Part shown: one piece after another, positions 7,309 to 27,682 of the stretch
Position numbering within the stretch: the stretch's first letter is position 1
Layout: each line of letters begins with the position of its first letter
NCBI RefSeq assembly: GCF_000179635.2
Contig: NC_014833.1
Span: forward strand, 2,580,001 to 2,612,000
Origin: Ruminococcus albus 7 = DSM 20455
Lineage (GTDB): Bacteria; Bacillota; Clostridia; Oscillospirales; Ruminococcaceae
Reading direction: 5' to 3'
DNA length: 32,000 nucleotides
Notes under the pieces: generated by a model
Seen by the model: only the letters and a program-made list of their open reading frames with translations
Told to the model about the DNA's origin: nothing
Database searches by the model: none
Program-made: the position numbers and the translations under genes

Positions 7309-9000
<1,692 letters not shown>

Positions 9001-9165
9001 CTATCCATTAATATCTCTTTTTATCAATCTCTCGATTTTATCCTCAGCGGTATCAGTCGAAGTTTCGCTGAAATGCGATACCACAATATATGTCATATTT
9101 CCGATAGTGATCTTACGCTCTATCGGTTTTATTTTATCTGTTTGCTCCGTTGTCTTTCTGTTCAA
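9001..9165 (-). CDS. TnpW-like small transposon-encoded protein
   Basis: TTG start at 9165 after GGAAGGG. IERKITIGNMTYIVVSHFSETSTDTAEDKIERLIKRDI matches my recollection of the TnpW family found in Tn4451-type elements. The upstream part of the 123-aa ORF overlaps the STAND gene start and is rejected. Confidence 0.45.
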   Translation of the reverse strand: MNRKTTEQTDKIKPIERKITIGNMTYIVVSHFSETSTDTAEDKIERLIKRDING

Positions 9166-9220
9166 TCTATCATCCCTTCCAAAATAATTATTTAAGTCCA
9201 AATAAACGCACAATAATACA

Positions 9221-9249
9221 TTGCAAATCACCCCAATTTGTGATATAAT
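9221..9249 (+). promoter_or_regulatory. sigma70-type promoter of the STAND NTPase gene
   Basis: TTGCAA (9221-9226), 17 nt, TATAAT (9244-9249) with TGn extended -10. Confidence 0.55.
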
Positions 9250-9279
9250 AGTTGTATAATTCTTTGTAGGAGGCACCCC

Positions 9280-11592: not shown

Positions 11593-12073
11593 TGACCGTC
11601 TGCACGATGACCGCAACAGGAGCAAGGCTGTACCAAAGCCACGCAAGCCCCGTCGCATGACTTGCGGTATTCAGCTTTTCGGCGCTCTTATCCACCGCCG
11701 TTTCGATATTAGTTACGGAGGTTTTGGTGTGTTCAAGCATCTTATCGACCGCCTCGTTCTGCTTCTTCATAATGTTTGTTAGGTTGTCGTTAAGCACCTT
11801 AGCGGTGTCTTTTCTTACGCTTTGCCGGTACTCCTCCTGCAAGTCGAGCAGGCGCAGTTGGCTCTCTTTCATCTCGCGGAGCTCGTTCTGAGTATCGCGG
11901 GTGTAGTTCGTCAACACCTCGTAAAGCCTGTCCACAGTCGCGAGCAGTAGCGTGATCTGGTACTTGTCCTCTGCTGCCCGACGGTCTTCCTCTCTCAAAT
12001 GCTGCACCTTCTGCCACAGGCTCGACAATTCTTCCTGCGGCGTGGCTCCTTGTGTATTTCGTGGCAAGCTCAT
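11567..12073 (-). CDS. coiled-coil protein with a C-terminal TM helix (Mob accessory?)
   Basis: Own RBS AAGGAAGGGG and an in-frame stop just upstream of the ATG. C-terminus is GLAWLWYSLAPVAVIVQTVIMVW. It lies inside the 3' tail of the relaxase ORF in another frame. Confidence 0.5.
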   Translation of the reverse strand: MSLPRNTQGATPQEELSSLWQKVQHLREEDRRAAEDKYQITLLLATVDRLYEVLTNYTRDTQNELREMKESQLRLLDLQEEYRQSVRKDTAKVLNDNLTNIMKKQNEAVDKMLEHTKTSVTNIETAVDKSAEKLNTASHATGLAWLWYSLAPVAVIVQTVIMVWQHFH

Positions 12074-12908
12074 ATTCTATCCCCTTCCTTGTGTATAGAT
12101 CTCCTAACCGACTTCCGCGCACCGAAACCGGTTCTCCATTCTTATTCAAATACTGCGGGTGCCGATACGAAACCGTATTCCCTGCGACCCTGCACTCAAC
12201 ATTATAATGCTCCTTCAGCCCGAGAATGACATCATCAAAAGTATGATTCAGCGGATCGGCGATCTCAATTCTTATTACCTCGCGCAGCTCGTCCTTGAAG
12301 CTCTCCGCACCGCGCTTTTTCATCTGCGCTTCACCGAAAGTCAGCTTATCTTTCTGACGTCCCATGTCATGGTTATAGAAATTGTCTCGAACCGAATTGG
12401 TAAAACCATATTCAAGGCATTTTCGCCCAAAGTATTCAGACATTTCATATAAATCCTTTTGACTTCTGCGATATGACCTTCCCGTATTCATATTGCAATT
12501 ACTGATGAGAAAATGCACATGAACATGGTCTGTATCGGTATGCACCGCGAAAAGCACCTCAAAACCTTTGCTGTGTATAAAATGTTCAGCGAAATCCAGC
12601 GATATCTCGAATGCGGTTTTGTGATCGACATTATCCAACGGGTGAAATGATATTGACATTTTATGCGCGAGGATCGTATTCTTCTTGTGCTTTGAATAGC
12701 TTTTCCCGTTCAGCTTGCGGGTGACGAGTATATTATTTGCAAAGTTCTCACGGTTGCAGCCGAGCGCGGTGTAAAGCTCGATATCGGTTTTCTTCACACC
12801 GCTTTCGACCTGCTGTTTTTGCCGACCGAGCATATACTCCGCTGCGGCTTTCAGCGCCCCGACCGACTTGCATGGCGCATAATCGACATTCACATTCCCG
12901 AACGGCAT
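11799..12908 (-). CDS. relaxase / mobilisation nuclease (MobA/VirD2 family); the last ~90 codons are probably non-native read-through
   Basis: Has the HTDTDHVHVHF histidine triad (HxDxxxHxH) and a conserved N-terminal region. Its ATG overlaps the mobC stop (TAATG). The C-terminal tail (AAGRIVEPVAEGAAFERGRPSGSRG...) is Arg/Gly/Ala-rich and overlaps the 11567-12073 gene. Confidence 0.8.
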   Translation of the reverse strand: MPFGNVNVDYAPCKSVGALKAAAEYMLGRQKQQVESGVKKTDIELYTALGCNRENFANNILVTRKLNGKSYSKHKKNTILAHKMSISFHPLDNVDHKTAFEISLDFAEHFIHSKGFEVLFAVHTDTDHVHVHFLISNCNMNTGRSYRRSQKDLYEMSEYFGRKCLEYGFTNSVRDNFYNHDMGRQKDKLTFGEAQMKKRGAESFKDELREVIRIEIADPLNHTFDDVILGLKEHYNVECRVAGNTVSYRHPQYLNKNGEPVSVRGSRLGDLYTRKGIEYELATKYTRSHAAGRIVEPVAEGAAFERGRPSGSRGQVPDHATARDCGQALRGVDELHPRYSERAPRDEREPTAPARLAGGVPAKRKKRHR

Positions 12909-13246
12909 TATCCCTCCGTGAGCGGCTTGTCAAGGAATGCCGAAAGCCTGTCCATCGCCGCACAGAAGCTGTTCTGATAATACCGGAGCGCAGTCTGCGC
13001 CTTGTCGCTCTGAAACGTATTAGCGAGATACGCCACCTGATTCAGATTTACGCCGATCTTCCGCAGTTCGTGCATTATCGCTTTGACATCATCATCGAAG
13101 AGATATACCTTAATATCAGTATCACGAACCATTTTTACGAAGAAATCAGTCTTTCCGAGACCACTTGCGGTACGTTTTTTCTCGAATGCCGCAAGTTCTT
13201 CCTTGGTCAGCCTTATGTTAAACTGCTTGTCTCTAACTCTATTCAT
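12908..13246 (-). CDS. mobC: MobC-family relaxosome accessory protein
   Basis: RHH-like N-terminus FNIRLTKEELAAFEKK and the characteristic GVNLNQVAYLAN motif. AAAGGAG RBS present. Confidence 0.8.
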   Translation of the reverse strand: MNRVRDKQFNIRLTKEELAAFEKKRTASGLGKTDFFVKMVRDTDIKVYLFDDDVKAIMHELRKIGVNLNQVAYLANTFQSDKAQTALRYYQNSFCAAMDRLSAFLDKPLTEG

Positions 13247-13258
13247 TTAGCTCCTTTC

Positions 13259-13645
13259 TCAGCCGCCGACAAAATCCATATCAATGTCATCGGCTGAAAC
13301 GTCGTTATCATTATTATTCGTTATGTTTATCGTCGGCGCAGCGCTGTATGGCATGACCATTTTCGTAAAGCACGCCGCGAGGAACGACGGAAGTGCTTTC
13401 TCAACACCGTTTTCCACCGCATTTACTATCTGCTCTACAAAACGTTCCTCTCGCTCGCGAGTCTCGAAATACGGGTCATCTTTCCGTCGGTAATACCGCT
13501 TGAAATACTCCGTAACAGCCATCGCGACCGCATGACTGTATGACTTGAACTCGTCCTTGTCCATACTATGCAAGTATTCCCAAGCCTGACGGTCGAGCGG
13601 CTTGTCAATGTTGAAACGCAGCGTTGTGCATTTTATGTTGCTCAT
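13259..13645 (-). CDS. ParR-like / RHH centromere-binding adaptor (hypothetical)
   Basis: Lies immediately downstream of the parM-like gene (1-nt gap) with a GGAGGG RBS. N-terminus is TLRFNIDKPLDRQAWEYL and the tail is acidic. Function is inferred from position only. Confidence 0.4.
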   Translation of the reverse strand: MSNIKCTTLRFNIDKPLDRQAWEYLHSMDKDEFKSYSHAVAMAVTEYFKRYYRRKDDPYFETREREERFVEQIVNAVENGVEKALPSFLAACFTKMVMPYSAAPTINITNNNDNDVSADDIDMDFVGG

Positions 13646-13646
13646 A

Positions 13647-14564
13647 TTATCCCTCCTTCAACTGCTGAAAAGCAATAGTTTCGTAGCCCTTAGCAGCGGC
13701 ACAGATGTCATCAATTATCGTTACACGGCTTGCATCAAACTCTCCGAAATTCTTGACGATACAGCCGCCTCCGCCTGCAACATAGAGCCGCATCAGCTCG
13801 GGGTCATACTCATACTTTGCAAGGGTCTGGAGCAGATCAGTGCAATATGATTTGATAGTATCGGTTATGCAATTCAAATATTTTTCCGAAATATCCGCCT
13901 TGCCTGTTCTTATCACCTGCTCAATAATGCTCTCGTCGATTTTCGTGCAAAACTTGTCCATTACCGCATTTTTCGCAGATATCACGCACTGATTTACGCC
14001 GAGCTTTTCCGTGTAGCACTTGCTCTCGATAGGGCGTTTGTTGTTGATGAACATGATGTTCATGGTTCCGTTGCCGATGTCCGCGAGCATATTTACGCCG
14101 GTCAGCTGCGTCAGACGGTCGATCACGGCAGGATACCCCTGCGGATAGATCGAGCAGCCAACAATATGCAGCTTGTACGCCACATCATTGAACGTGAATT
14201 TGACGTTCTTATTCTTCGTAATGTACCTGCGGAAATCCTCTCTCTGCGTCTTGACCCAAGTCAGTGGTAGCCCTGCTGCGATATGCACATCGGCTTCGGT
14301 GCAGTAAGTACATTTCAGTTCCTGAGCTATTGCCACAAGCGTCAGTAAGTAAAAATCCTCGTCCATGCTTTTATCAGCGATAAACGCCTTATGTCCTTCG
14401 CCTATGCGATAATACATACTGTCATACTGCAAGATATTTCCATCAAAGGTCGGCTTTGTAGGGTATGCCGTTATCCCCGTCGGCATGATCGTGTTTGCTG
14501 TTTTGATGTTGCCATATCCGTGGTCAACGCCTATGATCTTCGTTCCATTCTTTAGTTCTCTCAT
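13647..14564 (-). CDS. parM: ParM/StbA-family actin-like segregation ATPase
   Basis: Start at MRELKNGTKIIGVDHGYGNIKT after GGAGGG. Phosphate-binding motifs GVDHGYGNIK and LADIGNGTMNI. Confidence 0.75.
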   Translation of the reverse strand: MRELKNGTKIIGVDHGYGNIKTANTIMPTGITAYPTKPTFDGNILQYDSMYYRIGEGHKAFIADKSMDEDFYLLTLVAIAQELKCTYCTEADVHIAAGLPLTWVKTQREDFRRYITKNKNVKFTFNDVAYKLHIVGCSIYPQGYPAVIDRLTQLTGVNMLADIGNGTMNIMFINNKRPIESKCYTEKLGVNQCVISAKNAVMDKFCTKIDESIIEQVIRTGKADISEKYLNCITDTIKSYCTDLLQTLAKYEYDPELMRLYVAGGGGCIVKNFGEFDASRVTIIDDICAAAKGYETIAFQQLKEG

Positions 14565-14782
14565 TAAAAATCCCTCCGTTTCATGTTGTGACGGTTTTAG
14601 TATCGCTCTGATACCTCCCGTCAAGAATAATTATACCAGCGATCTCACGATTTGACATTGACTCAAAAATGACTGAAAAATGATTGTTTTTACGCTGCAA
14701 AAACACCTCTGATACCAAAAATCGGCGGGCGCATACGCGCCTGAAATCAAATTGAAGTAAAAATGATATTAAAAATATGCAC

Positions 14783-14825
14783 AAAAAAACAGCGGTACCG
14801 AACATAGTGCGTTTCGGTATCGCTG
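14783..14825 (-). terminator. strong hairpin plus T-run (orphan terminator / insulator)
   Basis: 13-bp stem CAGCGGTACCGAA (14790-14802) / TTCGGTATCGCTG (14813-14825, one mismatch). On the minus strand it is followed by T7. No minus-strand gene lies upstream of it. Confidence 0.4.
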
Positions 14826-15364
14826 TTATGCGTTTTATTCGGTTTTCGGTGCCAGCCTTGAAAACGGTGAGGCAAAAACATTTCATGCTGCGTAAATGGC
14901 AGCATAGGCAGGTAGCACCGCTGGCTATACAAACCCCGACTTTGGGCGGGCTTTGCATAGGCTGCGCGGTACTACCTGCTCAGAGGGGAAGACCCCTCCG
15001 AGACCTCCCCTAAAGCAGAGCATATGCTCTGTAAAAGCAAGGCTTCTGCTGAGGTGTGTGCAGAAGCCTTTGATCCTGCTAATTACATATATAGAAAGAT
15101 ATATAAGCTAATTACAGTGTTTATAAACAGATTATTACTCTTCGTTCATCACTTAGACACAAACGTCTTGCTCCTTATTCCTTTGATCATAATAACGTTT
15201 TGAATGATTGCACATACAGATGAGAAATAAGCTTAGAAGATAACCTAAATCATTACGTTATGAGTTTTGGACCGAGTGAATATGAAAACAGAAATTAAAT
15301 AACTTTTATTTAGGCATTTATGAAATTGATGGAATAACCTTTAATTGTGATAAATAGCGAAAAA

Positions 15365-15427
15365 TTTAGTTTGTACTAAAAAAATCACCGCAAATCTGTT
15401 GACTTTCAACGGAATTTAATATATAAT
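15365..15427 (+). promoter_or_regulatory. promoter of the C-protein/methyltransferase operon with an upstream palindrome (candidate C-box)
   Basis: TTGACT (15399-15404), 17 nt, TATAAT (15422-15427). The palindrome TTTAGTttgtACTAAA is at 15365-15380. Confidence 0.5.
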
Positions 15428-15482
15428 AATATTTGTTTAGTATTTGGGATTATTTGCAATTTTTTTCTTCGGGGGTGATAGA

Positions 15483-15719
15483 GTGGCTGTGAGTTACAGA
15501 AAACTATGGCATTTAATGTTGGATAAGAGAATTAGTAAAACTGAACTTGAAAAGTTGGCAGGTATTTCAGATTATACTATGCGAAAACTAAATAGGGATG
15601 ATGACGTATCAACTGAAGTTCTTACAAGTATATGCGCTGCACTGAATTGTGAAGTTCAAGACATCGTTGACTTCATACCTACAAAAAATAGTAATTTTGT
15701 GTTTGAGGATGACAAATGA
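15483..15719 (+). CDS. XRE-family HTH protein (controller/C-protein-like)
   Basis: GTG start (15483 or 15489) after GGGGGTGA. HTH region is ISKTELEKLAGISDYTMRKLNRDDDVSTEVLTSICAALNC. Its stop overlaps the next ATG (ATGA). Confidence 0.75.
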   Translation: MAVSYRKLWHLMLDKRISKTELEKLAGISDYTMRKLNRDDDVSTEVLTSICAALNCEVQDIVDFIPTKNSNFVFEDDK

Positions 15720-17509
15720 AAAAGACAGAACAATCTATTAAAAAGTTATTTATGAAGCCGCTTTCCTCAACTCGCGGTGGTGCATTTTATAATGCTTTCC
15801 CATATCCTACTAAGATTTCTCCGGAAGCAATTGCCATATATATCGCTTCAGCAACTAAGCCAGGTGAAAAGATACTTGATGCGTTTTCCGGAAGCGGGAG
15901 TACTGGAATAGCAGCTCTGCTTTCGGAATATCCGACTAAAAAAATGATTACAACAGCAATGGCACTCGGGATAAAACCAACTTGGGGTAGCAGAAATGCA
16001 GTACTTTATGAGATTGGGACTTACGCTACTTTTGCAACGAGAACGCTTACTAACCGGCTCAAGGCTAAGGATTATTCGATTGCCGTCAAGAGCTTTATTG
16101 AAAAAGCTAAGGAACTTGTTGGTGGTTATTATTTTGCCAAATCGCCTAATGGCTCATCTGGAACAATCCGCTACGCCATCTGGACTGAGTTTTTAGTTTG
16201 TCCTGAGTGTGGGGCTGAAATTGACTATTTTACGAATGGAACATCGAGAAATCCAGCAACGTTCAAAAAATCTGTCGAATGCCATCATTGCCGAAAAACC
16301 TGTTCAGTAGACGAAATGACTTTTGCAACTGAAGAATACTACGACAAGCTACTAAAAAGAACTATATCTCGTAAAAAGCGAAAGTTAGCATGGATTTATG
16401 GAACAAGCAAAGGCGAAAACTGGGATCGAGCAGCGACCACGGAAGACGAAGCTTTTATAAGAAAACTCGAAAATGAGTTTGTTCCAAATGAGTTACCACG
16501 GGAAATTAAATGGGGAGATTTGCACCGTGCAGGATATCATTATGGGATCACGCATCTCCACCATTTTTATACTATTAGAAATTATCGAGTGATGTCAGCA
16601 CTTTGGGAACTGGCAGGAACGTATCCAGAACGCGAGGCTGATGCGCTCAAGCTCCTCCTTCTTAGCTATAACGGAGCGCACTGCACTCTTATGACCAGAG
16701 TTGTTGCTAAACATAACGCAAAGGATTTTGTTCTGACCAGTGCCCAAAGCGGAGTACTTTATATTAGCAAGCTGCCGGTAGAAAAAAATATCTTGCTCGG
16801 ATTGCAAAGAAAGGCAAAGCCGTTTGAGGAATGTTATAAGATGCTCGAAAACTGTCACGGAACGATCGAGATTAGGAATGTTTCGAGTACAAAAATGATT
16901 GAACTAGATAAGAGTATCGACTTTGTGTTTACTGATCCTCCGTTTGGAGACTATATTCCTTATGCTGAAGTGAACCAAATCAATGAGCTTTGGCTTCCGA
17001 AGGTCACAGAGCGGTCTGAAGAAGTGATTATTAGCAACGCTCAGCAAAAGAATGAAGATAATTACCGAGATATGCTAACAAAAGTTTTCAGAGAGATAAA
17101 TCGCGTCGCTACAGATGATTGTTCAATTGCTATGGTTTTCCATGCCGCAAAAGCATCGATTTGGGGGACATTCGCAGATGCTGTCAAGTCAGCTGGACTA
17201 GAGATTGAGCAATCTAGTTTTCTTGACAAAACACAGGCGAGCTTTAAACAAGTTGTCTCAAAAACAGCTGTTCAAGGCGACCCCATCTTTCTTCTTAAAA
17301 AAAGTGAATCAGGAAAAACGGTGATTATAAATGAAGAATTAATTCTTAGGCAAGTTGTCGCGGACAATCCACATGAAACGGAAATTGAACAACGCCATTG
17401 TTATTCTCTATATATAGGAAAATGCATGGAAAACGGTATTAGTGTACAAAGAGACGCTGTTCAGGTATATGAGTATATTCGTAATCTGCGGGAGGCAGAA
17501 ACATTATGA
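15716..17509 (+). CDS. Zn-ribbon-containing DNA methyltransferase (COG1743/DUF1156-style; N6-A or N4-C)
   Basis: AdoMet motif ILDAFSGSGSTGIAA at about aa 55. Zn ribbon CPECG...CHHCRK at about aa 165-195. Motif IV FVFTDPPFGDYIPY at about aa 405. C-terminal region MVFHAAKASIWGTFADAVKSAGLEI. Confidence 0.85.
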   Translation: MKKTEQSIKKLFMKPLSSTRGGAFYNAFPYPTKISPEAIAIYIASATKPGEKILDAFSGSGSTGIAALLSEYPTKKMITTAMALGIKPTWGSRNAVLYEIGTYATFATRTLTNRLKAKDYSIAVKSFIEKAKELVGGYYFAKSPNGSSGTIRYAIWTEFLVCPECGAEIDYFTNGTSRNPATFKKSVECHHCRKTCSVDEMTFATEEYYDKLLKRTISRKKRKLAWIYGTSKGENWDRAATTEDEAFIRKLENEFVPNELPREIKWGDLHRAGYHYGITHLHHFYTIRNYRVMSALWELAGTYPEREADALKLLLLSYNGAHCTLMTRVVAKHNAKDFVLTSAQSGVLYISKLPVEKNILLGLQRKAKPFEECYKMLENCHGTIEIRNVSSTKMIELDKSIDFVFTDPPFGDYIPYAEVNQINELWLPKVTERSEEVIISNAQQKNEDNYRDMLTKVFREINRVATDDCSIAMVFHAAKASIWGTFADAVKSAGLEIEQSSFLDKTQASFKQVVSKTAVQGDPIFLLKKSESGKTVIINEELILRQVVADNPHETEIEQRHCYSLYIGKCMENGISVQRDAVQVYEYIRNLREAETL

Positions 17510-19296
17510 CGCAACCAAAGACAATCCAACATAAAAAAAGGTTTGGACAGTTTTTTTCTGGAAAGACGGTAGCAGATATGCTCTTCTCTTTACTTCCTCA
17601 AGGCTACAAATGGTCAAGTGTTGTCGACCCAATGGTTGGAATCGGTGATATGTTAGTTGCTGTTCAAGAGAATACCAAAGACTGTCCAACAATGCTTGGA
17701 ATTGAGATTGATAAGGTAGTAGCCAAGAAATGCGCTGAGCGAGTTCCGAATGCGAGTATTCTTTGCTGTGATGCGTTCAAAAATGATAATGTCGTCACAT
17801 CAAATGGGTTTGATCTTGTCATTACGAATCCTCCTTATGTTAGGTATCAATTGCAATACGATGACAAGGTAATGCCATCGGCACGTGAAATACGAGAAAA
17901 CCTAATTCGTCAGATTCAACGGATTCCTTATCTCTCTGAAAAAGAACGATTTCTATTTCTACAGCTCGCAAAAAACTATTCCGGATTGTCTGATATGGCA
18001 GTTCCGGCATGGCTGCTATGTGCAGCCTTGGTAAAAAAGAATGGCTATTTAGCTATGGTTGTACCAGAAACTTGGCTAAATCGTGATTATGCTTCGCCTA
18101 TACAATATTTGCTTTTAAAATGCTTCAGAATAGAAACTATTGCAATCGATAAGAACGCAAGCTGGTTTCCAGAAGCACTGGTCAAGACTTGTCTTGTTGT
18201 TGCTAAGCGAGTTGAAATACAGCCGCTACATGAAACAGAAAAACTTATTACTCGGATCATAGAAAACAAGAGGATTTATAAACAGCCAACAACTACGCTT
18301 TTCTACTATCTCAAAGGAGCAAAGGAAGCAAACAAGTGGTGCTTGTCGGAAGATGCAACTTTTTTCTCCAAGCGCTTGGAATTACCGCATGATCTTGCGG
18401 AGATCCTCAAAAGAACCGAGCCTGTTGAATTTATGACCCTTGCAGAAATGGGTATTGAATGTGGTCAGGGCCTTAGGACAGGAGCTAATGATTTTTTTTA
18501 TATCAAAATCAAAAAGGCTGAAAGAAAAACGATTAGGATTCATAGCAGGGTATGGGATCACGGGGGGAGAGATTATACTTTCCTAAAAGACGATATCATC
18601 CCTGCATTGCAGAACAGGGGAGAAATCAAAGGATTGGTTGTTACTCCAGGTAAGCTCAAAACAGGTGTTATTTATCCGCAGAGCGAAGTCAAGGGAGACT
18701 TGCAGAATTATATAGGCTCGGCAGAGAAATACATCGATACAAAGGGACGACGGTTCAAGGATTATAGTGCTGTTGTACCAAACGAAAAGAAAGATGGAGA
18801 TAGAATTGTCCGCGAGTGGTTCCGACTCCCGAAAATGGCAAATCGTCACCTTCCGAATCTTTGCATTACAAGAGTCTCGGCAGGAATTCCCGAGTGTTTG
18901 TTTGTTGAGCAAAATGAAAGTGAACCAATTGCAATTGACGCAAATATGGTAACAATCTGGGGGCATGATTCTCAGATGGTTTGGGGTGTTTTCGCATTGC
19001 TAAATTCAACATGGAGTAAACTATCACTTGAACTAATCTGCACCGTTATGGGTGGTGGTGCGCTAAAAGTCGAAACGAGTCATGTAAAGAAGCTTCTTGT
19101 TCCAAAGCTCAACTATGACCAGCTAAATAGATTAGGAAATATTGGTAAGGAATTGTTTAACCAAGAATGCATGACTGAAGGAATTCAAGATAAAATTGAT
19201 AATATTATCGCTTCTGCTTTGGGTGCAAAAGAAATAACGTCCAAAATGCGGAGCCTTTTGGAGCGGAAATATCAAGAAAGGAGCACACGATCGTGA
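17506..19296 (+). CDS. gamma-class N6-adenine DNA methyltransferase (Eco57I-type)
   Basis: Motif I VVDPMVGIGDMLVAV and motif IV DLVITNPPYVRYQ, followed by an ~300-aa C-terminal target-recognition-like region. ATGA overlap with the upstream gene; GGGAGG RBS. Confidence 0.85.
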   Translation: MTQPKTIQHKKRFGQFFSGKTVADMLFSLLPQGYKWSSVVDPMVGIGDMLVAVQENTKDCPTMLGIEIDKVVAKKCAERVPNASILCCDAFKNDNVVTSNGFDLVITNPPYVRYQLQYDDKVMPSAREIRENLIRQIQRIPYLSEKERFLFLQLAKNYSGLSDMAVPAWLLCAALVKKNGYLAMVVPETWLNRDYASPIQYLLLKCFRIETIAIDKNASWFPEALVKTCLVVAKRVEIQPLHETEKLITRIIENKRIYKQPTTTLFYYLKGAKEANKWCLSEDATFFSKRLELPHDLAEILKRTEPVEFMTLAEMGIECGQGLRTGANDFFYIKIKKAERKTIRIHSRVWDHGGRDYTFLKDDIIPALQNRGEIKGLVVTPGKLKTGVIYPQSEVKGDLQNYIGSAEKYIDTKGRRFKDYSAVVPNEKKDGDRIVREWFRLPKMANRHLPNLCITRVSAGIPECLFVEQNESEPIAIDANMVTIWGHDSQMVWGVFALLNSTWSKLSLELICTVMGGGALKVETSHVKKLLVPKLNYDQLNRLGNIGKELFNQECMTEGIQDKIDNIIASALGAKEITSKMRSLLERKYQERSTRS

Positions 19297-22200
19297 ATAG
19301 AAATCAACTTAGAGACTATGCAATACAAGCGCAAGCTATGATTGATTCAGGTGCTGTTGAAGACAAAATTCGCCACTACTTCTCTTCTAGATTGTTGAGT
19401 ATTTTTCCAGATTATCCTTGGTGGGTTCAAGCACATATGCAAGGAACGGAGGAACACGTTCATTTTTCTACAGCGGGTAGCAATCGTGAGGGGTTTGTTG
19501 ACGCTGTGGTTGGAAAAACTGCCATTGAATATGAGAAGAATTTGATGATTCAAAGCATATTTGAGGAAGGCTATCATCAGGTCAAAGAGTATTCAGCTGC
19601 GCTTTGCAATATTGGTATACCCGAAACTGAAGTTTTAGGAGTGCTGTCAGATACAGTCAGATGGTACGGATTTAAAGTAAGAGTTATTGGAGAACAGACA
19701 GAGGGGATTTTGCTCGGCCCAGATGATGTAGAACTTGAAAGAATAATGTTCGTTGATCTTTCAATTGAAACTGACGAAGAATATTCTCGATTCGAACAGT
19801 TTATAGCTCAGTTCATGGCGCGAGAAGAATCGCGTATTCTAAACGCTAAGACACTTGTAATGGATTTTGGTGTTGATAGTAACTTCTACAGATCATTTAT
19901 CGGAGCATTTTCTGAAGCAACTAATACAGCAATGGCAGAAAAGCCAGATTATGCAGAACTAATCAAACAGGTGTGGCAAAACTTTATCGCATATCTCGGT
20001 GTATCAGATTATGGCTCATTTTCAACAGAAACATACGTGAGCGAGTTTTATCTTGTGACAGTTGCAAAAATACTCTGCGCCAATATACTTGCGGGTAGAG
20101 CAATCATAAGCTCAGACGACGAGATCAAGGCGATACTTAATGGCGAACACTTCTCAAGGCAAAACATATATAATTTCGTTGATTACGATTATTTTGGATG
20201 GCTTAATAGAAGCCCATATGTTGATATTATCATTCCTAGCGTCAGGGAGATGCAAAATCGGCTCAAAGCTTATGATTTTTCTCGGCTTGGAGATGAGGAT
20301 ATATTTGGAAGACTTCTCGCTCAGCTTGCCAACAAGGAGCATCGGCTTATGCTGGGACAGGAGTTCACACCGCATTGGATTGCCAGGGATATTGTTAAGT
20401 ATAACATAAATAAGATTGGAGACGAGGTTCCACACATAATGGATATGTGCTGTGGATCAGGAGTGTTCCTGATTGAATCGATTAATGCTGTACGAGAGAA
20501 ATATTCAATCTCTTCGGATAAATACGATGCTAAGAAGGATGCTATCATTTTTTCTGCTGTGATGGGGTTTGATATTGATCCATTGGCAGTAATGCTTGCA
20601 AAGGTCAATTGGATTATGACAATGAGGGATTTGTTCCCTTTACATTCGGGAAGTATTACAGTTCCGATTTATCATGCTGATTCCCTATTTGTTGCTACGC
20701 CGATTACACATAAAATGCCAACGCAGGATGAGGATTATTATATCATTACACTTAATCATCAACAAATCAGAGTACCTGCATTCCTGTTTTCTACGATGTA
20801 CAGAAAGGTGTTTGACTCTTTTATATCGAAAGTCTATAGGGTAGCAATGGCGAGAGCGAAACAAGCAGAAGATACAATAGATGCATTTGATGCTGAATCG
20901 CTAATCAACGCCGTAGAACGCGAAGGTGAGATTGAACTTGGAAAGCATAGGAAAGCTGAGCTTTCTTTGACGGCAAATCAAATGGTTTTTCAACTTGAAA
21001 GTCTCCAGCGTCATGGACAAAATGGTATCTGGCACTTTATTATCAGCAACAGTTATAGACCGGGGCTTACAGAAAAGCAGTTTAATTGCATCGTTTCTAA
21101 TCCTCCTTGGATGGCAATGAGCAAGCTGGCAGATAATCCTTATAAGAATGCACTTCATGAGATTGCAGAAAAGTATTCGATTCAGCCTAAAGGTGCTGCA
21201 CATCCGCACATGGAGCTTGCTACGATTTTTTTAGTCAGTTCCATTGACCGTTATCTTCATGACGGAGCATGCTGGAGTTATGTCATGCCTGCAAGTCTGA
21301 TGAGCGGACTTAATCACGAACCGTTTAGGAAAGAAAAGTTCATAACTTCGGACGCCGAATTAGAAGCGAAAGTCGAGGCAATTTGGGAACTTCCAGTTGA
21401 TATGTTTAAAAACAAAGCAGTAGTGCTTTCTGGTAAAAAAACTACTCAGGTGCCAGAGACAATCGACGGGCGCGTTTATGAAGCAATGAATAATTATAAA
21501 GACTGTATATATACACTCAATCGTCAAGGAAACCGTAGTGCTTGGACAAATAGAGGTAGCACTGTTGATGTTGCTGATGTAATTGCTAGTGATAGGCTCA
21601 GTTTTTTACAAGGATGTGACATGTTTCCTAGAACAGCGCTGTTCCATCAATTTGTTCCCAGACCGAACGGAAACTGGGATATTCGACCGATTGACCGCAC
21701 TGGTGATTTATGGTATCTCGTTAGTGATAGCAAGAAGAATATCTGCAATGACCTTATTTCAGAGGATTTTGATAACGAGTTTATTTATGATACGTTTATT
21801 TCTAAGCACTTATCTCCATTCATTATGGCTGAGCCAGCAAAAGGATTAATTCCTGGGCGTAAGGTGGATGGAGTTTGGAAACCACTATATGCAGAGGATT
21901 TAGCGCTTTTAAACGCTGGAACGGAATATGTTTTCCAGCAGATTTCAGATGCGATCAAGCAAAACCTAGTTCAATTTCTTAACGAAACAATAAATATTTA
22001 TGGTAAACTATATAGGCAGAATTTTTCAATGAAAAATTATCTGGTACTTTCAAGTGCGAGCGGATCGAATCCGTGCGCAGCATACCTAGACCTTAGAAAT
22101 CTCAACAGAAACAGGCTCGTGATTGATCAAACACTATATTGGTATCTTGCTGAAACAGAAGACGAAGCAATCTATATTTCTGGACTTCTTAACAGTTCTG

Positions 22201-22505
22201 CACTATGGGATGCCATATCAGATTTCCAACCAGAAGGAGGTTTTGGTAAGCGTCACATACACACTCTGCCATATAAGATTATTCCGTCATTCGATTCAGA
22301 AAACGATGTACATATAAAAGTAGTTGATGCTACAAAAAATTTGATACATGAATGGCAAACAGTTTGCATGAACGATATATATCGGAATCTTATCAAGCCA
22401 AATGGAGGTACGCTTTCCAGCAGACGTAAAAAACAGCAGAGCAAGATACGTGAGCTTACTTCATATGAAATATATGCAACGGCTTGTATGGAATTATTAA
22501 GATGA
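19293..22505 (+). CDS. 1070-aa MmeI/PglX-like protein: N-terminal PD-(D/E)xK-like region, helical spacer, N6-adenine methyltransferase, then TRD
   Basis: GTG start with GTGA overlap, AAAGGAG 9 nt upstream. Contains GFVDAVVGKTAIEYEKNL (aa 67-84), QEFTPHWIA, motif I MDMCCGSGVFLIES and motif IV CIVSNPPWMAMS. Confidence 0.8.
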   Translation: MNRNQLRDYAIQAQAMIDSGAVEDKIRHYFSSRLLSIFPDYPWWVQAHMQGTEEHVHFSTAGSNREGFVDAVVGKTAIEYEKNLMIQSIFEEGYHQVKEYSAALCNIGIPETEVLGVLSDTVRWYGFKVRVIGEQTEGILLGPDDVELERIMFVDLSIETDEEYSRFEQFIAQFMAREESRILNAKTLVMDFGVDSNFYRSFIGAFSEATNTAMAEKPDYAELIKQVWQNFIAYLGVSDYGSFSTETYVSEFYLVTVAKILCANILAGRAIISSDDEIKAILNGEHFSRQNIYNFVDYDYFGWLNRSPYVDIIIPSVREMQNRLKAYDFSRLGDEDIFGRLLAQLANKEHRLMLGQEFTPHWIARDIVKYNINKIGDEVPHIMDMCCGSGVFLIESINAVREKYSISSDKYDAKKDAIIFSAVMGFDIDPLAVMLAKVNWIMTMRDLFPLHSGSITVPIYHADSLFVATPITHKMPTQDEDYYIITLNHQQIRVPAFLFSTMYRKVFDSFISKVYRVAMARAKQAEDTIDAFDAESLINAVEREGEIELGKHRKAELSLTANQMVFQLESLQRHGQNGIWHFIISNSYRPGLTEKQFNCIVSNPPWMAMSKLADNPYKNALHEIAEKYSIQPKGAAHPHMELATIFLVSSIDRYLHDGACWSYVMPASLMSGLNHEPFRKEKFITSDAELEAKVEAIWELPVDMFKNKAVVLSGKKTTQVPETIDGRVYEAMNNYKDCIYTLNRQGNRSAWTNRGSTVDVADVIASDRLSFLQGCDMFPRTALFHQFVPRPNGNWDIRPIDRTGDLWYLVSDSKKNICNDLISEDFDNEFIYDTFISKHLSPFIMAEPAKGLIPGRKVDGVWKPLYAEDLALLNAGTEYVFQQISDAIKQNLVQFLNETINIYGKLYRQNFSMKNYLVLSSASGSNPCAAYLDLRNLNRNRLVIDQTLYWYLAETEDEAIYISGLLNSSALWDAISDFQPEGGFGKRHIHTLPYKIIPSFDSENDVHIKVVDATKNLIHEWQTVCMNDIYRNLIKPNGGTLSSRRKKQQSKIRELTSYEIYATACMELLR

Positions 22506-22712
22506 ATATGTAACAACACGTTTTATTTTTGAATTAATAAATCTATTAGAAGAATCAAACCATATGTTAAAAACAAACTCGATTCTTGCTGTATCGAAGT
22601 TGGTTTTCTTTTCATGTTATCGTTATTCACTATTGCTTTCAATTCGAGCAATATGGAACGAGCGGGACGAGTTATATTGCCATGTGAAGAGTAAAAGAAA
22701 AGGATCTGCGGA

Positions 22713-22741
22713 TTGACTTTTGCATGAGTGTCTGGTATATT
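22713..22741 (+). promoter_or_regulatory. sigma70-type promoter for the PHP-ATPase module
   Basis: TTGACT (22713-22718), 17 nt, TATATT (22736-22741) with TGn extended -10. Confidence 0.5.
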
Positions 22742-22884
22742 ATAAATTAGGTTTTGTTATCATTTTTTCTGCCTATTACTATGCTATCATTTATGCAAAA
22801 CAGGAACTAGATAAGTGGAAAGATATGAAATTAATTTCTATTACAATAGCTGTTTGTATAATTGTCAAGAGAGGTGAACTTGCT

Positions 22885-24924
22885 TTGAAAAAGTTAGATC
22901 TTCATATACATACCAAAAAATCAGTAAGTGATCATCCATTTGAATTCTCAATTGACAAGTTGAAAGAATACGTCACTCAAATGGGAATTGATGGAATCGC
23001 TATTACTAACCATAACCTATTTGATAAAGATCAATTCTTTGCAATTCAAAATGAATTAAATGGAGTTTGTGTTGTATTGCCTGGTATTGAAATTGATTTA
23101 GGCATTAAGTCAGATGGCCATATCATCTGCATTACTACACAAGATGACATCGATGATTTTTCTCAAAAATGTGATAAGATAAATGCCTTAATAAAAGAGC
23201 AAAGCGACTTTGTAAAGTATGATGATTTTAAGTTGATATTTACTGATTTAGGTAAATATCTATGGATTCCGCATTATGACAAAGATCCCATTCTAGACAA
23301 AGAAATAATCAAAGATATGGGAGAAAATATAAAATGCGGCGAAGTCGGAAGTGTAAAGAAATTTATATACAATCAAAACAATCCTGAATGTCTCATACCT
23401 GTTTACTTTAGCGATACTCGTTTTACGGCCGATTTGCCCAAACTTCCTTTAAGGCAAACCTATTTTGATATCGATGAAATAAATGTTGCTACGATTAAGC
23501 GCTCTCTTTTGAGTCGCACTCATGTTTCTTTGACGGAGGAAGAAGGTCATAGCCTTTTCTATGTATTGCCAGATCTAAAAATATCTACTGGATTAAATGT
23601 TATCGTTGGTGGTAGATCGTCTGGAAAAACTTACACACTAAATGAGATTTCCAAAGCCAATGATAATGTTAAATACCTAAAGCAATTTTCGCTAATTGAA
23701 CAGGATCCAGAAACATCAGCAAAAATATTTGCAGACAAAATTGCAAATAAAAGAAATAGTTTTGCTGAAGAATACTTCGATCTTTTTAAAGAGGCCGTCT
23801 CATCAGTAAAAAACATCTCTATTAAGGATGACGAAGCAAAAATCGAACAATACATAACCAGCCTTGTAAAATGCGCTAAAGAAACTGATAGGGTTGATAT
23901 GTTTTCAAAGTGTGCCTTATATAACGAAGAAACATTTCCCAAAAGAAAACTTGAAGGCTTAGAGAAGTTAATATCAGCCACTGAAACACTACTTGGAGCA
24001 AGAGAGTATAGAGAGCTTATTGATAAGCATATCCCCTACAGCTCTCTTGTTTCGTTGTTGCATGATTTAGTGTATAAATATCGTCAAGAGAAAGAACTCT
24101 CACTAAAAGAAAAATGGGTTGGAGATTTAGTCAAAGACGTTAAACGCGCACTTAAAACACGTAGCGCAACAACTGAAATATCGGAAGTTGATTTTTATGA
24201 ATGTCAGCTTAATAGAAAGAGAGTGCAAAAGTTTAACAAGTTAGCAAAGCTTGTTAAGCAAGAGGAAATAATTAGCAATCAAGAAATTGAAAATTTTAAT
24301 GTTCAAGCTAAGAAAAGAGCTTTTAAAAATGCTCAGGAACTTAAGGATTTTAGTGGGCGTAGGAATATTAGGTTTTCTGATGTTATTGATCTTTACGATA
24401 ACAATCCGCAAGAGTATCTTCTGGCATTAAAAGAGATGGAGAACATTCCCGATTCGGATTATTATAAATATTTTGCTTATATCGAATATGCCGTTTTGAA
24501 TCAATATGGTTTTGAAGTATCTGGCGGCGAACGTGCGGAGTTTAATTTACTTCAAGAAATAAATGATGCATATAGATATGATTTATTACTTATTGATGAG
24601 CCAGAATCATCTTTTGACAATATTTTCTTAAAAGAAAAGGTGAATCATATTATCAAAGAACTTTCTAAGACTATGCCCGTAATATTAGTTACTCATAATA
24701 ACACGGTTGGTGCCTCAATAAAACCTGATTACCTAATACATACTAAGCGAATTATCGGAAAAGATATACGTCATGAAAGATACTGTGGTCTGCCAAGTAG
24801 TAAAAATCTAATATCCAATTCTGGTGAATCAATAAAAAATATCGATGTGATGATGGATTGTTTAGAGGCAGGACAAGCTACATACGATGAAAGGAGAAAC
24901 GATTATGAACTACTTAAAAATTAG
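22885..24924 (+). CDS. PHP-domain phosphoesterase fused to an SMC/ABC-type ATPase with a coiled-coil insert
   Basis: TTG start 8 nt after GAGGTG. An in-frame ATG at 22825 would add a hydrophobic N-terminal segment. PHP motifs: LDLHIHT, ITNHN, GIEID, IPHYD. ATPase motifs: Walker A GGRSSGKT, signature VSGGERAEF, Walker B LLLIDEPESSFD and LVTHNN. Confidence 0.8.
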   Translation: MKKLDLHIHTKKSVSDHPFEFSIDKLKEYVTQMGIDGIAITNHNLFDKDQFFAIQNELNGVCVVLPGIEIDLGIKSDGHIICITTQDDIDDFSQKCDKINALIKEQSDFVKYDDFKLIFTDLGKYLWIPHYDKDPILDKEIIKDMGENIKCGEVGSVKKFIYNQNNPECLIPVYFSDTRFTADLPKLPLRQTYFDIDEINVATIKRSLLSRTHVSLTEEEGHSLFYVLPDLKISTGLNVIVGGRSSGKTYTLNEISKANDNVKYLKQFSLIEQDPETSAKIFADKIANKRNSFAEEYFDLFKEAVSSVKNISIKDDEAKIEQYITSLVKCAKETDRVDMFSKCALYNEETFPKRKLEGLEKLISATETLLGAREYRELIDKHIPYSSLVSLLHDLVYKYRQEKELSLKEKWVGDLVKDVKRALKTRSATTEISEVDFYECQLNRKRVQKFNKLAKLVKQEEIISNQEIENFNVQAKKRAFKNAQELKDFSGRRNIRFSDVIDLYDNNPQEYLLALKEMENIPDSDYYKYFAYIEYAVLNQYGFEVSGGERAEFNLLQEINDAYRYDLLLIDEPESSFDNIFLKEKVNHIIKELSKTMPVILVTHNNTVGASIKPDYLIHTKRIIGKDIRHERYCGLPSSKNLISNSGESIKNIDVMMDCLEAGQATYDERRNDYELLKN

Positions 24925-25312
24925 TAATGGAAAGGGTTCCTTTAGAAATAAAGACGGCGAATATAAGGAAATAGATACTATCACTAAGGAAGATATACTT
25001 TATTTACTTGACGAGGCGACGGATTCAACAAGCAATTTTGAAATGGATGAGATTACGGACGATTCTATTAAAAACGAAGCACATAAAATTATTTATAAAA
25101 GTATTTACTCAAAATTCTCTAATCTATTAAATAACAAAAAGCAATTTCTAGACGAGTGTGATGGGCTCTACAAAGATGCACTTCAAAAATACAAACCAAA
25201 AGAAGAAGTTATGACAAGCAACGGCAGTAGTTCAGATAATATCGCTCAAGTCGATGTATCATCATTCAAAAGTAAGCGTATAACCCCCAGCACCTACCCC
25301 ACCGAAGTCTAA
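24905..25312 (+). CDS. small acidic hypothetical protein overlapping the PHP-ATPase gene by 20 nt; native C-terminus displaced by the IS66 insertion
   Basis: ATG at 24905 after AAAGGAGA. The last 13 codons are read from the IS66 left end. The reconstructed native end is ...SSFKMK, with the stop at 28289-28291. Confidence 0.5.
   Translation: MNYLKISNGKGSFRNKDGEYKEIDTITKEDILYLLDEATDSTSNFEMDEITDDSIKNEAHKIIYKSIYSKFSNLLNNKKQFLDECDGLYKDALQKYKPKEEVMTSNGSSSDNIAQVDVSSFKSKRITPSTYPTEV
25264..25271. repeat. IS66 target-site duplication, left copy (ATTCAAAA)
   Basis: Identical 8-mer directly abutting both IRs. Confidence 0.85.
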
Positions 25313-25412
25313 TAAAGTATAATAAACTCCAAGGAACACCATGAAGTAAATTGAATAATCCAAATTGATCCATGGAGTTCATTGGAGACGATTAGACAAG
25401 GAGGTAACAGGT

Positions 25413-25730
25413 ATGGACAAAACAACATCCATCACAACAATCAAAAAAGAAATGCAGCTTCAGGAATGGTCTGCGCAGATCAAAGCACAGCAGGCAAGCG
25501 GTCTGACGATCCGGGAATGGTGCAAAGAAAAAGGGATCAAGCCAAACACGTATTACAACCGCCTAAGAAAAGTTCGTGAAAAGTATATCGAAAATTCTCC
25601 GACCATCGTTCCTGTATCAGTTCCTTGCTCAAACGAAAATATCCGCATTGAGAAAAACGGACTTCAAATATCTCTTCCGGCAGATATATCTGCGGACACT
25701 CTGACCGCTTTGGTGCATGAGCTATGCTGA
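25413..25730 (+). CDS. tnpA: IS66 accessory protein TnpA (orf1)
   Basis: MDKTTSITTIKKEMQLQEWSAQIKAQQASGLTIREWCKEKGIKPNTYYNRLRKV (HTH). AAGGAGG RBS present. Confidence 0.8.
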   Translation: MDKTTSITTIKKEMQLQEWSAQIKAQQASGLTIREWCKEKGIKPNTYYNRLRKVREKYIENSPTIVPVSVPCSNENIRIEKNGLQISLPADISADTLTALVHELC

Positions 25731-26079
25731 ATGATCTGGCAGCGGACGCACAGGTCTATCTTGTTACGGGATACACCGACCTTCGACGCGGGATAGACGG
25801 ACTTGCGACTATCGTTCAGGCTCAGCTTCGACTTGACCCGTTCTCGAAAGCATTGTTTTGTTCTGCGGCAGACGTTGTGACCGCATCAAAGGTCTGCTGT
25901 GGGAGGGCGATGGTTTTCTGCTGTTGTACAAGCGCCTTGACAACGGAAGATTCCAGTGGCCGCGCAGTGAGACCGAAGCAGTAATGCTCACATCTCAGCA
26001 AATTCGCTGGCTTCTGGAAGGCTTGAAAATAGAGCAGCCGAAGGCTATCCGTGAGGGAAAGCCGGGGGCGCTGTATTAA
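25724..26079 (+). pseudogene. tnpB: IS66 TnpB (orf2), frameshifted
   Basis: VYLVTGYTDLRRGIDGLA...SKALF is in one frame and FCGRRCDRIKGLLWEGDGFLLLYKRLDNGRFQWP is in the next. The shift lies in a T-run near 25853-25858. Confidence 0.8.
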
Positions 26080-26171
26080 GGCAATACTTACCGAATATTC
26101 AGAATATGTGCTTGAAAAGCCCCTCTTTTCGTGGTATCATTAAAGTATCATCACGAACGGAGGGGTGCTTT

Positions 26172-27682
26172 ATGTCCGAACCAAATATGACATCGGAAAT
26201 TGTATCGCTCCGTAATGAAAACGCTGTTCTCAAGGAAGAACTAGCACTTGCCAATCAGCAGTTAGCGTGGTTCAGAAAGCAGATATTCGGAAGAAAACAG
26301 AGCAGACATCTGTTGTTATGGAAAAGGAGTTCGGTGTTCAGCTTTCCATGTTCGGAAACAATGAAGAAAATCCGCAGCTAAATCTGCCGAAACAATTACT
26401 GTTCCCGAACACAAGCGCAAGAAAAAACGCACTCACGATGAATGGATGAACAATCTGCCTGTAAAAGAAGAACATCACAAAATTGACAACCCGGTATGCG
26501 AAATATGCGGCGCCGAAATGGAAGAACTGACTCCCGAAAAGGCTTACGATGAACTTATATTTACGCCGCCAAAATATCATATCCGCAGGCATATAGTACA
26601 TAAGTACAAGTGTCCCGAGTGCGGAGAAAAGCCCGAAGAAAGGGACGAACCTTGTCATATCATCCGTGCGCCATATCCTCACGCTATGATCCCGGGAAGC
26701 TATTGCTCTCCCGAACTTCTGGCTCATATCATCTACGAAAAATATGCAAAGTCAGTACCTCTGCACCGTCAGGAAAAGGACTTTAATTCCAAAAACATAC
26801 CTCTGCTCAAAGCGACTATGTCTAATTGGGTAGGCACTGCTGCCGAAAAATGGTGTTTGCCGATTGTGGAGAAAATGCATGAGACGCTTATCGCAGGGCA
26901 GATGATCCATGCCGATGAAACGACCGTTCAGGTGCTTCACGAGGAAGGCCGAAAGCCTACCACGACATCAAGAATGTGGGTCTACTGCAACGGCAAAATG
27001 AATGACAGGAGCATCATCATTTTCGATTATCAGCCGACACGAAAGGGTGAGCACGCCTCGAATTTCCTGAAAGGATTTATCGGCTATCTTATCTGTGACG
27101 GATACGATGCCTACAATGCAGTCGAGGGTGCTAAGCGATGCGGCTGTATGACTCATGCAAGGCGTGGTTTTATTCAGGCTCTTCCGAACGACCAAAAGCT
27201 GCACAGCACTTCTGTTGCGGCAAAGGCAGTAGAATATTTCAACAAGATATATCACGAAGAAAAATCTGCTTGCCGACAGCTCCACAGAATACAGATATAA
27301 ACAGCGCCTTGTGAAGGTAAAGCCTTTGCTTGACGAGTTTTTTGCGTGGCTTGAAAATGTTCAGGTCAGTGGTAAGGGCAAGCTGACAGATGCAGTAAGA
27401 TATGCGTTGAATGAACGGAAATATCTTTACACGTTTCTTGAAAACGGAGACGTGCCTATCGACAACAACAGAGCCGAAAACGCAATAAGACCGTTTGCGT
27501 TAGGCCGAAAAAATTGGCTGTTTTCAAATACAGCAAACGGAGCCAGATCAAGTGCAACGCTGTATTCGATCATTTCAACTGCACAGGCGAACGGTGTTGA
27601 TGCTGAGAAATACCTGACCGAGCTGTTTTCACAGCCTGCGGGAACGATATTATTACCATGGAGGGAAGAAAATGAAACTTAG
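26172..27682 (+). pseudogene. tnpC: IS66 DDE transposase TnpC, interrupted by at least three frameshifts
   Basis: Leucine-zipper N-terminus, Zn-finger CEICG...CPECG, HADETTVQVL and the C-terminal NRAENAIRPFALGRKNWLF are spread over four frames/ORFs (26172-, 26267-, 26446-27300, 27311-27682). Confidence 0.85.

Follow-up and report, generated by a model that had tools for sequence, protein, structure and literature searches.

The window considered here is a stretch of 32,000 nucleotides (nt) from Ruminococcus albus 7 = DSM 20455 (NC_014833.1, positions 2,580,001 to 2,612,000 of the forward strand; coordinates below count from its first letter). Its list of open reading frames (ORFs), read directly, contains four consecutive plus-strand ORFs that span 15483-22505: a gene for a small helix-turn-helix (HTH) protein, two genes for stand-alone DNA methylases, here called MT-A and MT-B, and a gene for a large fusion protein, here called RM. 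We interpret this operon, with good confidence, as a Type IIG restriction-modification (R-M) system that includes two companion methylases and, as a facultative part, a controller. It would be IIC/IIS-like, reside on a mobile element of Ruminococcus albus and represent a known kind of defence by an uncharacterised member. A first-pass annotation, made from the sequence alone, had described the operon as a coupled set of a controller protein and three methyltransferase-fold proteins with no stand-alone nuclease, and had left the choice between an unusual Type IIG variant and an epigenetic-discrimination module of a new kind.

The stop and start codons of the four genes overlap, as had been claimed: direct reading of the junctions gives ATGA at 15716, ATGA at 17506 and GTGA at 19293, and a Shine-Dalgarno-like run precedes each overlap (GAGGA, GGGAGG and AAGGAG, respectively). 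Upstream lies a promoter-like site, TTGACT-17-TATAAT at 15399-15427, which matches the consensus in 11 of 12 positions and is the best site found by a consensus scan of 14900-25500; inside the operon the same scan detected neither a comparably strong plus-strand site nor a convincing terminator. The motifs quoted for the three methylase-fold proteins are all present in the translations, namely DAFSGSGST, CPEC...CHHC and DPPF in MT-A, DPMVGIGD and NPPY in MT-B, and DMCCGSG and NPPW in RM.

Table. Features of the R-M operon and of the adjoining mobile element (positions in the window).
Feature	Position	Strand	Remarks
Promoter-like site with overlapping imperfect palindrome	15395..15427	+	consensus scan; putative function, from sequence
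HTH gene	15483..15719	+	78 amino acids from GTG 15483; longer TTG-initiated ORF from 15444
MT-A gene	15716..17509	+	597 amino acids
MT-B gene	17506..19296	+	596 amino acids
RM gene	19293..22505	+	1070 amino acids, GTG start
RM N-terminal ~175 amino acids, putative PD-(D/E)xK endonuclease domain	19293..19817	+	motif conservation
RM helical connector, residues ~176-330	19818..20282	+	helices 185-324 in AF2 model; layout as in BpuSI
RM gamma-class N6-adenine methylase domain	20283..21362	+	Pfam and PADLOC matches
RM C-terminal target-recognition region, residues ~691-1070, and stop codon	21363..22505	+	full-length model matches
Large serine recombinase with DUF4368	7309-8979	-	family scans
MobA/VirD2 relaxase	11799-12908	-	family scans
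NikA/MobC-like protein	12908-13246	-	family scans
ParM-like actin-fold protein	13647-14624	-	family scans

A protein 100% identical to RM bears the database name 'N-6 DNA methylase'. The methylase domain, which holds motif I (DMCCGSG, residues 384-390, 20442-20462) and motif IV (NPPW, residues 603-606, 21099-21110), both conserved across 35 sequences, is matched by PF02384 (E 5.8e-14) and PF07669 (E 3.5e-9). Residues 277-680 match the REBASE-derived Type IIG profile REase_MTase_IIG PDLC03630 of PADLOC (E 2e-59), and PADLOC-type tools would already call the locus RM Type IIG plus Type II methylases. The full-length AlphaFold2 (AF2) model, with a predicted local distance difference test score (pLDDT) of 71, matches CamA, BrxX/PglX, MmeI, M.BseCI, BpuSI and DrdV; Foldseek E-values against 5hr4, 3s1s, 7lo5, CamA and BrxX/PglX lie between 1e-9 and 1e-12, and these matches bear out the MmeI/PglX-like character that had been ascribed to the protein. 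The whole-model matches to 5hr4, 3s1s and 7lo5 likewise support a predicted recognition region of the MmeI/BpuSI/DrdV type, for which Pfam has no match and relaxed Pfam and PHROG scans (E up to 10 or 1) gave nothing useful. Searches of RM against PDB sequences, by single-sequence phmmer and by profile, returned only weak methylase-motif matches to BsaXI and PglX and did not recover 3s1s.

The statement that the operon holds no nuclease is not borne out, because a conserved set of PD-(D/E)xK-type motifs sits in the first ~175 residues of RM. We regard this part as a putative endonuclease domain, an assignment based on motif conservation, secondary structure and homology and not on a confirmed fold. 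Conservation within the protein is highest over the first ~240 residues. The motif FVDAVVGKTAIEYEKNL at 19494-19544 includes D70, E79 and E81-K82, and Q96xxxY100 and S119-D120-T121 are conserved further downstream. A profile of the domain retrieved 203 proteins from 1.84 billion representatives; of the 150 best, all 65 that are longer than 1000 amino acids carry the domain N-terminally, and these 65 proteins measure 1049-1221 amino acids, mostly ~1050-1115. In an alignment of 66 full-length representatives, which includes the window protein and reaches down to ~27% identity, E23 is present in 65 sequences, E53 in 64, and D70, E79 and D120 in all 66; from this near-invariance we argue that an active site has been maintained. 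Position 81 is a Glu followed by Lys or Arg in the window subfamily (I-E-Y-E-K), with a basic residue always following E81 in close relatives, and is a Lys in distant relatives (I-E-F-K, L-E-W-K, I-E-A-K). Judged from these aligned columns, the family-level motif is the canonical D-X8-E-x-K.

Homology to a protein labelled as a restriction enzyme points in the same direction. By BLASTP, residues 69-1010 of RM align with a 1001-amino-acid Rhizobium plasmid protein (E 2e-39, ~22% identity) labelled 'restriction endonuclease BseRI', a label that is the depositor's automatic annotation, and in this alignment VDAVVGKTAIEYEK pairs with IDVEVGATVIEVKR (D..E-V-K). Residues 23-119 of the RM AF2 model run in the order helix, three strands, helix, strand, which is an alpha-beta-beta-beta-alpha-beta core order. 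The N-domain profile matched a single SelB fragment among the PDB sequences; this match was judged spurious and rejected.

A separate observation concerns a motif switch within one nuclease family at 19527-19538 (RM residues 79-82). Compared in the same columns with the relatives P0341-P0390, the lysine of close relatives seems to be shifted by one position, its former place being occupied by a Glu.

MT-A, MT-B and RM travel together. The comparison covered 42 loci, seven of them places in metagenomes (L001-L007) and 35 in genomes (L008-L042), and 39 of them keep the order MT-A, MT-B, RM, the gaps at the junctions ranging from -32 to +6 nt. Homologues of the trio are thus syntenic elsewhere, and not the independent orphan methylases that the first-pass annotation had also considered. 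The exceptions are L018 (without both methylases), L039 and L042 (RM fragment only), two of the three being decayed: L039 has all three genes in shortened form only, its RM fragment being preceded by a gap of 468 nt. At L018 (Massiliimalia massiliensis NZ_FUHT01000003, 7631-11219) MT-A is missing and MT-B is reduced to its last ~126 amino acids; a stop breaks the RM gene into ORFs 7989-10721 and 10845-11219, and no other locus has an internal stop in RM. A broken RM gene at the sole methylase-less locus is the pattern expected if an unprotected RM is toxic.

Among the hosts are Lachnospiraceae, Oscillospiraceae, Gastranaerophilales (52% identity), Caldisericota (42%), Phocaeicola (35%) and a Hymenobacter plasmid (40%), and the divergence of each of the three proteins from its window copy correlates with that of the others (Spearman 0.69-0.81). 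The flanks vary among loci and include a prophage-like replication module, a type IV secretion system (T4SS) conjugative element, a Mob_Pre mobilisable element and others. Among more distant relatives, one that is 34% identical (L045, 2809-10234) keeps the trio order behind a Phd/YefM-like gene, and at ~27% identity (L050, 6273-14046, and L043, 8001-12385) the overlapping genes stand in the rotated order RM, N6_N4 methylase (MT-A-like), Eco57I-type methylase; another relative has an MT-A homologue directly downstream of the RM gene, and one distant RM-family member is solitary and adjoins an Mrr gene. The overlaps, the 39 loci and these distant relatives together show that the two stand-alone methylase genes are co-operonic with RM and co-inherited with it. 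No BREX or DISARM partner appears in the gene tables of the inspected related loci. The operon found no match by megablast in E. coli genomes or PLSDB plasmids, nor by tblastn in phage records.

Other genes were seen next to the cassette at single loci. At L050 a HEPN/NB-ARC STAND protein is encoded upstream, and an ABC-three-component system adjoins the trio on the Hymenobacter plasmid (L048). A Gabija-like pair (OLD-ATPase and UvrD-like, 13238-15810) follows the cassette at L002, next to the Mob_Pre element, and a WYL-domain regulator (15800-16783) follows it at L006.

As had been described, MT-A is a permuted N6_N4 methylase: motif I comes first, a four-cysteine element lies in the middle and DPPF follows late. 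Motif I (DAFSGSGST) occupies residues 55-63 (15878-15904), the 4-Cys zinc-finger element residues 162-192 (16199-16291) inside a nested recognition insert, and motif IV (TDPPFG) residues 406-411, its DPPF lying at 16934-16945. Alignment to CcrM shows that the motif order is circularly permuted relative to beta-class enzymes, and PF01555 covers only the motif I part at the N-terminus. C162, C165, C189, C192, DxFxGSGST and TDPPFG are invariant in 34 non-redundant homologues. The best library match is the BREX type-3 PglXI profile of PADLOC (E 3.6e-98, residues 12-525 against positions 103-618 of 919).

The proposed COG1743/DUF1156 identity of MT-A holds for the kinship of the methylase core, as the PglXI profile indicates, and fails for the DUF1156 domain itself. 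Pfam gave no match to this domain at E<=0.01, and the NCBIfam model DUF1156_antiphage scored 38.9 bits against a cut-off of 1000, covering only residues 273-542; membership in DUF1156/COG1743 was rejected since the N-terminal DUF1156 helical domain was not detected by either library. A 2026 comparative study describes the core of BrxXI/PglXI and DUF1156 'BR' methylases as an N6-methylase with a recognition insert of ~250 residues that contains a four-cysteine Zn finger, to which N- and C-terminal extensions are added (PMC12839542). MT-A shares this core, the large insert after the AdoMet motif and the 4-Cys zinc finger; in contrast to BrxXI/PglXI of BREX type 3, it has neither the DUF1156 N-terminal domain nor the C-terminal triad of HTH domains, and in contrast to BREX type-3 and BR systems its partner is a Type IIG nuclease-methylase instead of BrxC, PglZ, BrxHII or a DUF499 ATPase. 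MT-A is taken as a companion DNA methylase of the BrxXI/PglXI-DUF1156 clade, probably specific for N6-adenine, as the DPPF motif and the clade suggest.

MT-B is an Eco57I-type gamma-class N6-adenine methylase, in agreement with the original description (PF07669 E 1.3e-11, PF02384 E 2.5e-8). Its motif I (DPMVGIGD, 17626-17649) and NPPY (17827-17838) are invariant in 35 non-redundant homologues, and in close relatives MT-B always lies directly upstream of the RM gene. BLASTP among the three methylases found no shared recognition domains.

The HTH protein is of the Xre/Cro type and belongs to the HTH_26 family (PF13443 E 3.2e-17). Its start was placed at GTG 15483 because homologues begin with ATG-GCT-GTA where the window has GTG-GCT-GTG. 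An imperfect palindrome, TCTGTTGA-ctt-TCAACGGA at 15395-15413, overlaps the -35 hexamer of the operon's promoter-like site, and a per-locus palindrome search found a similar one, TGTTGAGA-t-TATCAACA, upstream of the HTH gene at L017, the resemblance being confined to these two loci. The upstream regions align poorly, and no C-box consensus emerged across loci. On the basis of the two loci we consider the palindrome a candidate operator for the HTH protein, which would make the latter a putative autoregulator or controller of the operon. The designation 'C-protein' is apt insofar as an Xre/Cro-type HTH gene is co-transcribed through its ATGA overlap onto MT-A, but the gene is facultative: it stands upstream of MT-A in only 19 of the 41 loci that hold MT-A (window included), and at L045 a 73-amino-acid Phd/YefM-like gene takes its place. 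The operon thus resembles controller-regulated Type II R-M systems in having a small Xre-family HTH gene at its head and a palindrome over its promoter; it differs from them in that the HTH gene precedes the methylases and not only the nuclease gene, belongs to the HTH_26 family and is missing from over half of the related loci.

Among known systems, the arrangement is closest in kind to Type IIC enzymes, whose accompanying methylases number zero, one (Eco57I) or two (BpuSI) (PMC4081073). The BpuSI operon consists of an amino-methylase (M1), a C5-methylase (M2) and an RM fusion, which proved impossible to clone in the absence of M1 and M2 and whose own methylation protects incompletely (PMC3185434). 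With BpuSI, BspLU11III and BsmFI our system shares the single chain of N-terminal PD-(D/E)xK nuclease (putative here), helical connector, gamma N6A-methylase and recognition domain, as well as two companion methylases in one operon, which in the known systems are needed for host protection. The likeness to BpuSI is at the level of the fold only (Foldseek match to 3s1s, E 2e-11), whereas sequence similarity to BpuSI, BsmFI and BspLU11III is not detectable, phmmer and profile searches against PDB sequences missing 3s1s. Further differences are that both companions here are apparently amino-methylases, whereas BpuSI has one amino- and one C5-methylase, that the nuclease motif is D-X8-ExE/K here versus PD-X15-ExK in BpuSI, and that a facultative HTH regulator is added here to what BpuSI, BspLU11III and BsmFI possess.

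Likeness to Eco57I and BseRI consists in the match of MT-B and of the RM methylase domain to the Eco57I Pfam family and in the alignment of RM with the BseRI-labelled protein (an unverified label), D..ExK motif included; the differences are the single companion methylase of Eco57I, as opposed to two here, and the low identity between RM and the BseRI-labelled protein. The overall layout and fold of the RM fusion recall the Type IIL enzyme MmeI (5hr4, Foldseek E 5e-12), and some distant RM relatives are solitary, as MmeI is. MmeI, however, comes without a separate methylase, in contrast to the two conserved companions here, and no MmeI Pfam domains were detected in RM. Membership in Type I or III R-M, BREX or DISARM was rejected: HsdR/S, Res, PglZ, BrxC and DrmA/DrmB are absent from the window, and library scans agree with the first-pass annotation on these and on the absence of PLD genes.

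The surroundings are those of a mobile element. The operon lies in a stretch of low guanine-plus-cytosine (GC) content (0.33-0.42 versus 0.45-0.52 in the flanks), and 7309-14958, which includes the recombinase, relaxase and other element genes of the table, is the backbone of an integrative mobilisable element; because of these genes and the low GC the operon can be regarded as cargo of this element. A complete candidate defence pair, PDC-M49A/B, follows on the plus strand at 22885-24924 and 24887-25312 (PADLOC E 1e-288 and 2.8e-93). PDC-M49A, whose start is probably the TTG at 22885, joins a PHP phosphoesterase domain at its N-terminus to an ATPase of the ABC/SMC type (TrlF-like). The GC content here is only 0.33. 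The pair begins 380 nt downstream of the R-M operon with its own promoter-like site (22713-22741), and together with the R-M operon it looks like cargo of the element. A functional link between the trio and PDC-M49 was rejected in view of this promoter-like site, the 380-nt spacing and the absence of the pair from all 42 related loci.

Several further genes of the region were noted. Inside the element, 9280-11592 (+) encodes a 770-amino-acid STAND-type NTPase with C-terminal TPR repeats, weak AAA_16 and nSTAND1 matches and no PADLOC match, possibly an uncharacterised Avs-like sensor. A decayed IS66-family element at 25365-27682 (+) retains an HTH_Tnp_1-like ORF, an 86-amino-acid fragment of IS66 Orf2 (TnpB) and a DDE transposase split into ORFs 26446-27300 and 27311-27682. 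Just outside the recombinase end of the island, a Macro-domain protein (5625-6389, +; PF01661 E 2e-36) overlaps a 289-amino-acid ORF without family match (6334-7203, +); this pair has a GC of ~0.50, unlike the island.

The interpretation as a Type IIG system has to be weighed against several observations that speak against it. The nuclease-less PglX/BrxX matches the RM model in Foldseek as well as Type IIG enzymes do. The AF2 model of the isolated N-terminal domain has a pLDDT of 67, with values below 50 across the catalytic hairpin (residues 51-84); Foldseek of this low-confidence model against the PDB gave no match below E 0.6, and no Pfam, PADLOC, PHROG or PDB sequence profile covers the domain (Pfam and PHROG scans to E 10 or 1). 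The window subfamily has Glu where the canonical motif has Lys (E-Y-E-K); BamHI is active with the E-x-E variant of the motif. On the Hymenobacter cellulosilyticus plasmid NZ_CP095047 (L048, 2050-9228) the MT-A homologue is split into two frames (residues 1-338 and 331-586), annotated as two hypothetical proteins, next to an RM gene annotated as intact ('hypothetical protein'), and this split either reflects a sequencing error or contradicts a strict dependence on MT-A. The most direct alternative to draw on such points is a module for methylation only, in which the N-domain is a degenerate or non-catalytic relic, comparable to the non-nucleolytic N-terminal domain of PglX, and the trio with its HTH protein serves as a set of orphan or epigenetic regulators or, as anti-restriction cargo, methylates the element in advance. 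It finds support in the PglX/BrxX matches, in the Lys-to-Glu exchange, in the missing fold match, and in the fact that the cassette always rides on mobile elements. We nevertheless consider it unlikely: each of the acidic residues E23, E53, D70, E79 and D120 persists in at least 64 of the 66 representatives, a basic residue always follows E81, the sole locus without companion methylases has a broken RM gene, and the upkeep of three methylases for regulation alone would be unparsimonious.

Alternatively, MT-A, MT-B and the PglX-like protein might form an obligate stoichiometric complex for epigenetic discrimination, a new multi-subunit system of BREX-like character, though lacking PglZ and BrxC, that would sense the combined state of methylation and in which the companions are needed for restriction too. 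Translational coupling of the genes, the retention of the trio in two gene orders over very large divergence and the occurrence of the MT-A clade in BREX type 3 and DUF499 'BR' systems otherwise are in keeping with such a complex. However, ordinary R-M operons just as typically show overlapping genes in a conserved order, the trio has no BREX or DISARM partner either in the window or in the relatives inspected, RM can stand alone, as solitary members of its family show, and BpuSI-type systems account for the trio without new mechanisms; we hold such a complex to be very unlikely. A minimal BREX-like obligate machine with an E-x-E-variant nuclease, in which MT-A and MT-B assemble with the PglX-like RM and the combined methylation of an asymmetric site, in place of one mark alone, decides between self and non-self, would explain why MT-A stays with the RM family even in the rotated order; we rate it as quite unlikely. 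That three unrelated methylase genes merely came to lie side by side in a defence island could be imagined for a defence-rich mobile element with PDC-M49 directly downstream, yet chance adjacency is refuted by synteny, with the same order in 39 of 42 loci despite different flanks, overlapping genes and correlated divergences, and PDC-M49 is never co-conserved with the trio; its probability is next to nil.

The option of an unusual Type IIG variant is the one supported, by the Type IIG profile, the Foldseek matches and the putative nuclease motif. A new kind of epigenetic-discrimination module need not be invoked, because operons of the BpuSI type, in which an RM fusion is joined by two companion methylases, are an established arrangement (PMC3185434, PMC4081073). 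Three features are unusual, namely an MT-A of the BrxXI/PglXI-DUF1156 clade, a nuclease domain without a Pfam model and E-x-E-K in place of E-x-K, and they therefore define an uncharacterised family and not a new kind of system.

On this Type IIG interpretation RM would be a single-chain fusion of restriction, modification and specificity functions, built of nuclease, helical connector, N6-adenine methylase and recognition region. By analogy with characterised enzymes, its binding site would be asymmetric, cleavage would occur at a fixed distance from that site, and RM would methylate just one of the two strands. Since methylation of one strand by RM would be insufficient for the host, we propose, again by analogy, that the two stand-alone methylases supply full protection, MT-A and MT-B probably serving one strand each. 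With separate methylases to modify each strand, newly replicated host DNA would never be left unprotected. The order of two methylase genes before RM, the overlapping codons and the GTG start of RM may ensure that the methylases are made earlier than, and at least as abundantly as, the nuclease, while the HTH protein probably represses the single promoter via the palindrome over the -35 hexamer and so would regulate its own synthesis. Nothing relevant turned up when the literature was searched for an R. albus methylome.

These findings leave the accepted picture of R-M biology as it stands. It is the family that they bring into view: if active, RM would be the prototype of a large uncharacterised Type IIG family, with at least 203 clusters at 50% identity, that is common in gut Clostridia and occurs in Bacteroidota, Caldisericota and Gastranaerophilales as well. 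The core of the BrxXI/PglXI type, hitherto discussed in the context of BREX type 3 and DUF499 systems, serves here as an ordinary companion methylase, and this role of MT-A bears on the evolution of BREX methylases. The N-domain could enter domain libraries, with the result that such genes would no longer be annotated as plain 'N-6 DNA methylase'. An active RM family could, moreover, yield new recognition specificities for REBASE and aid the reading of gut-microbiome methylomes.

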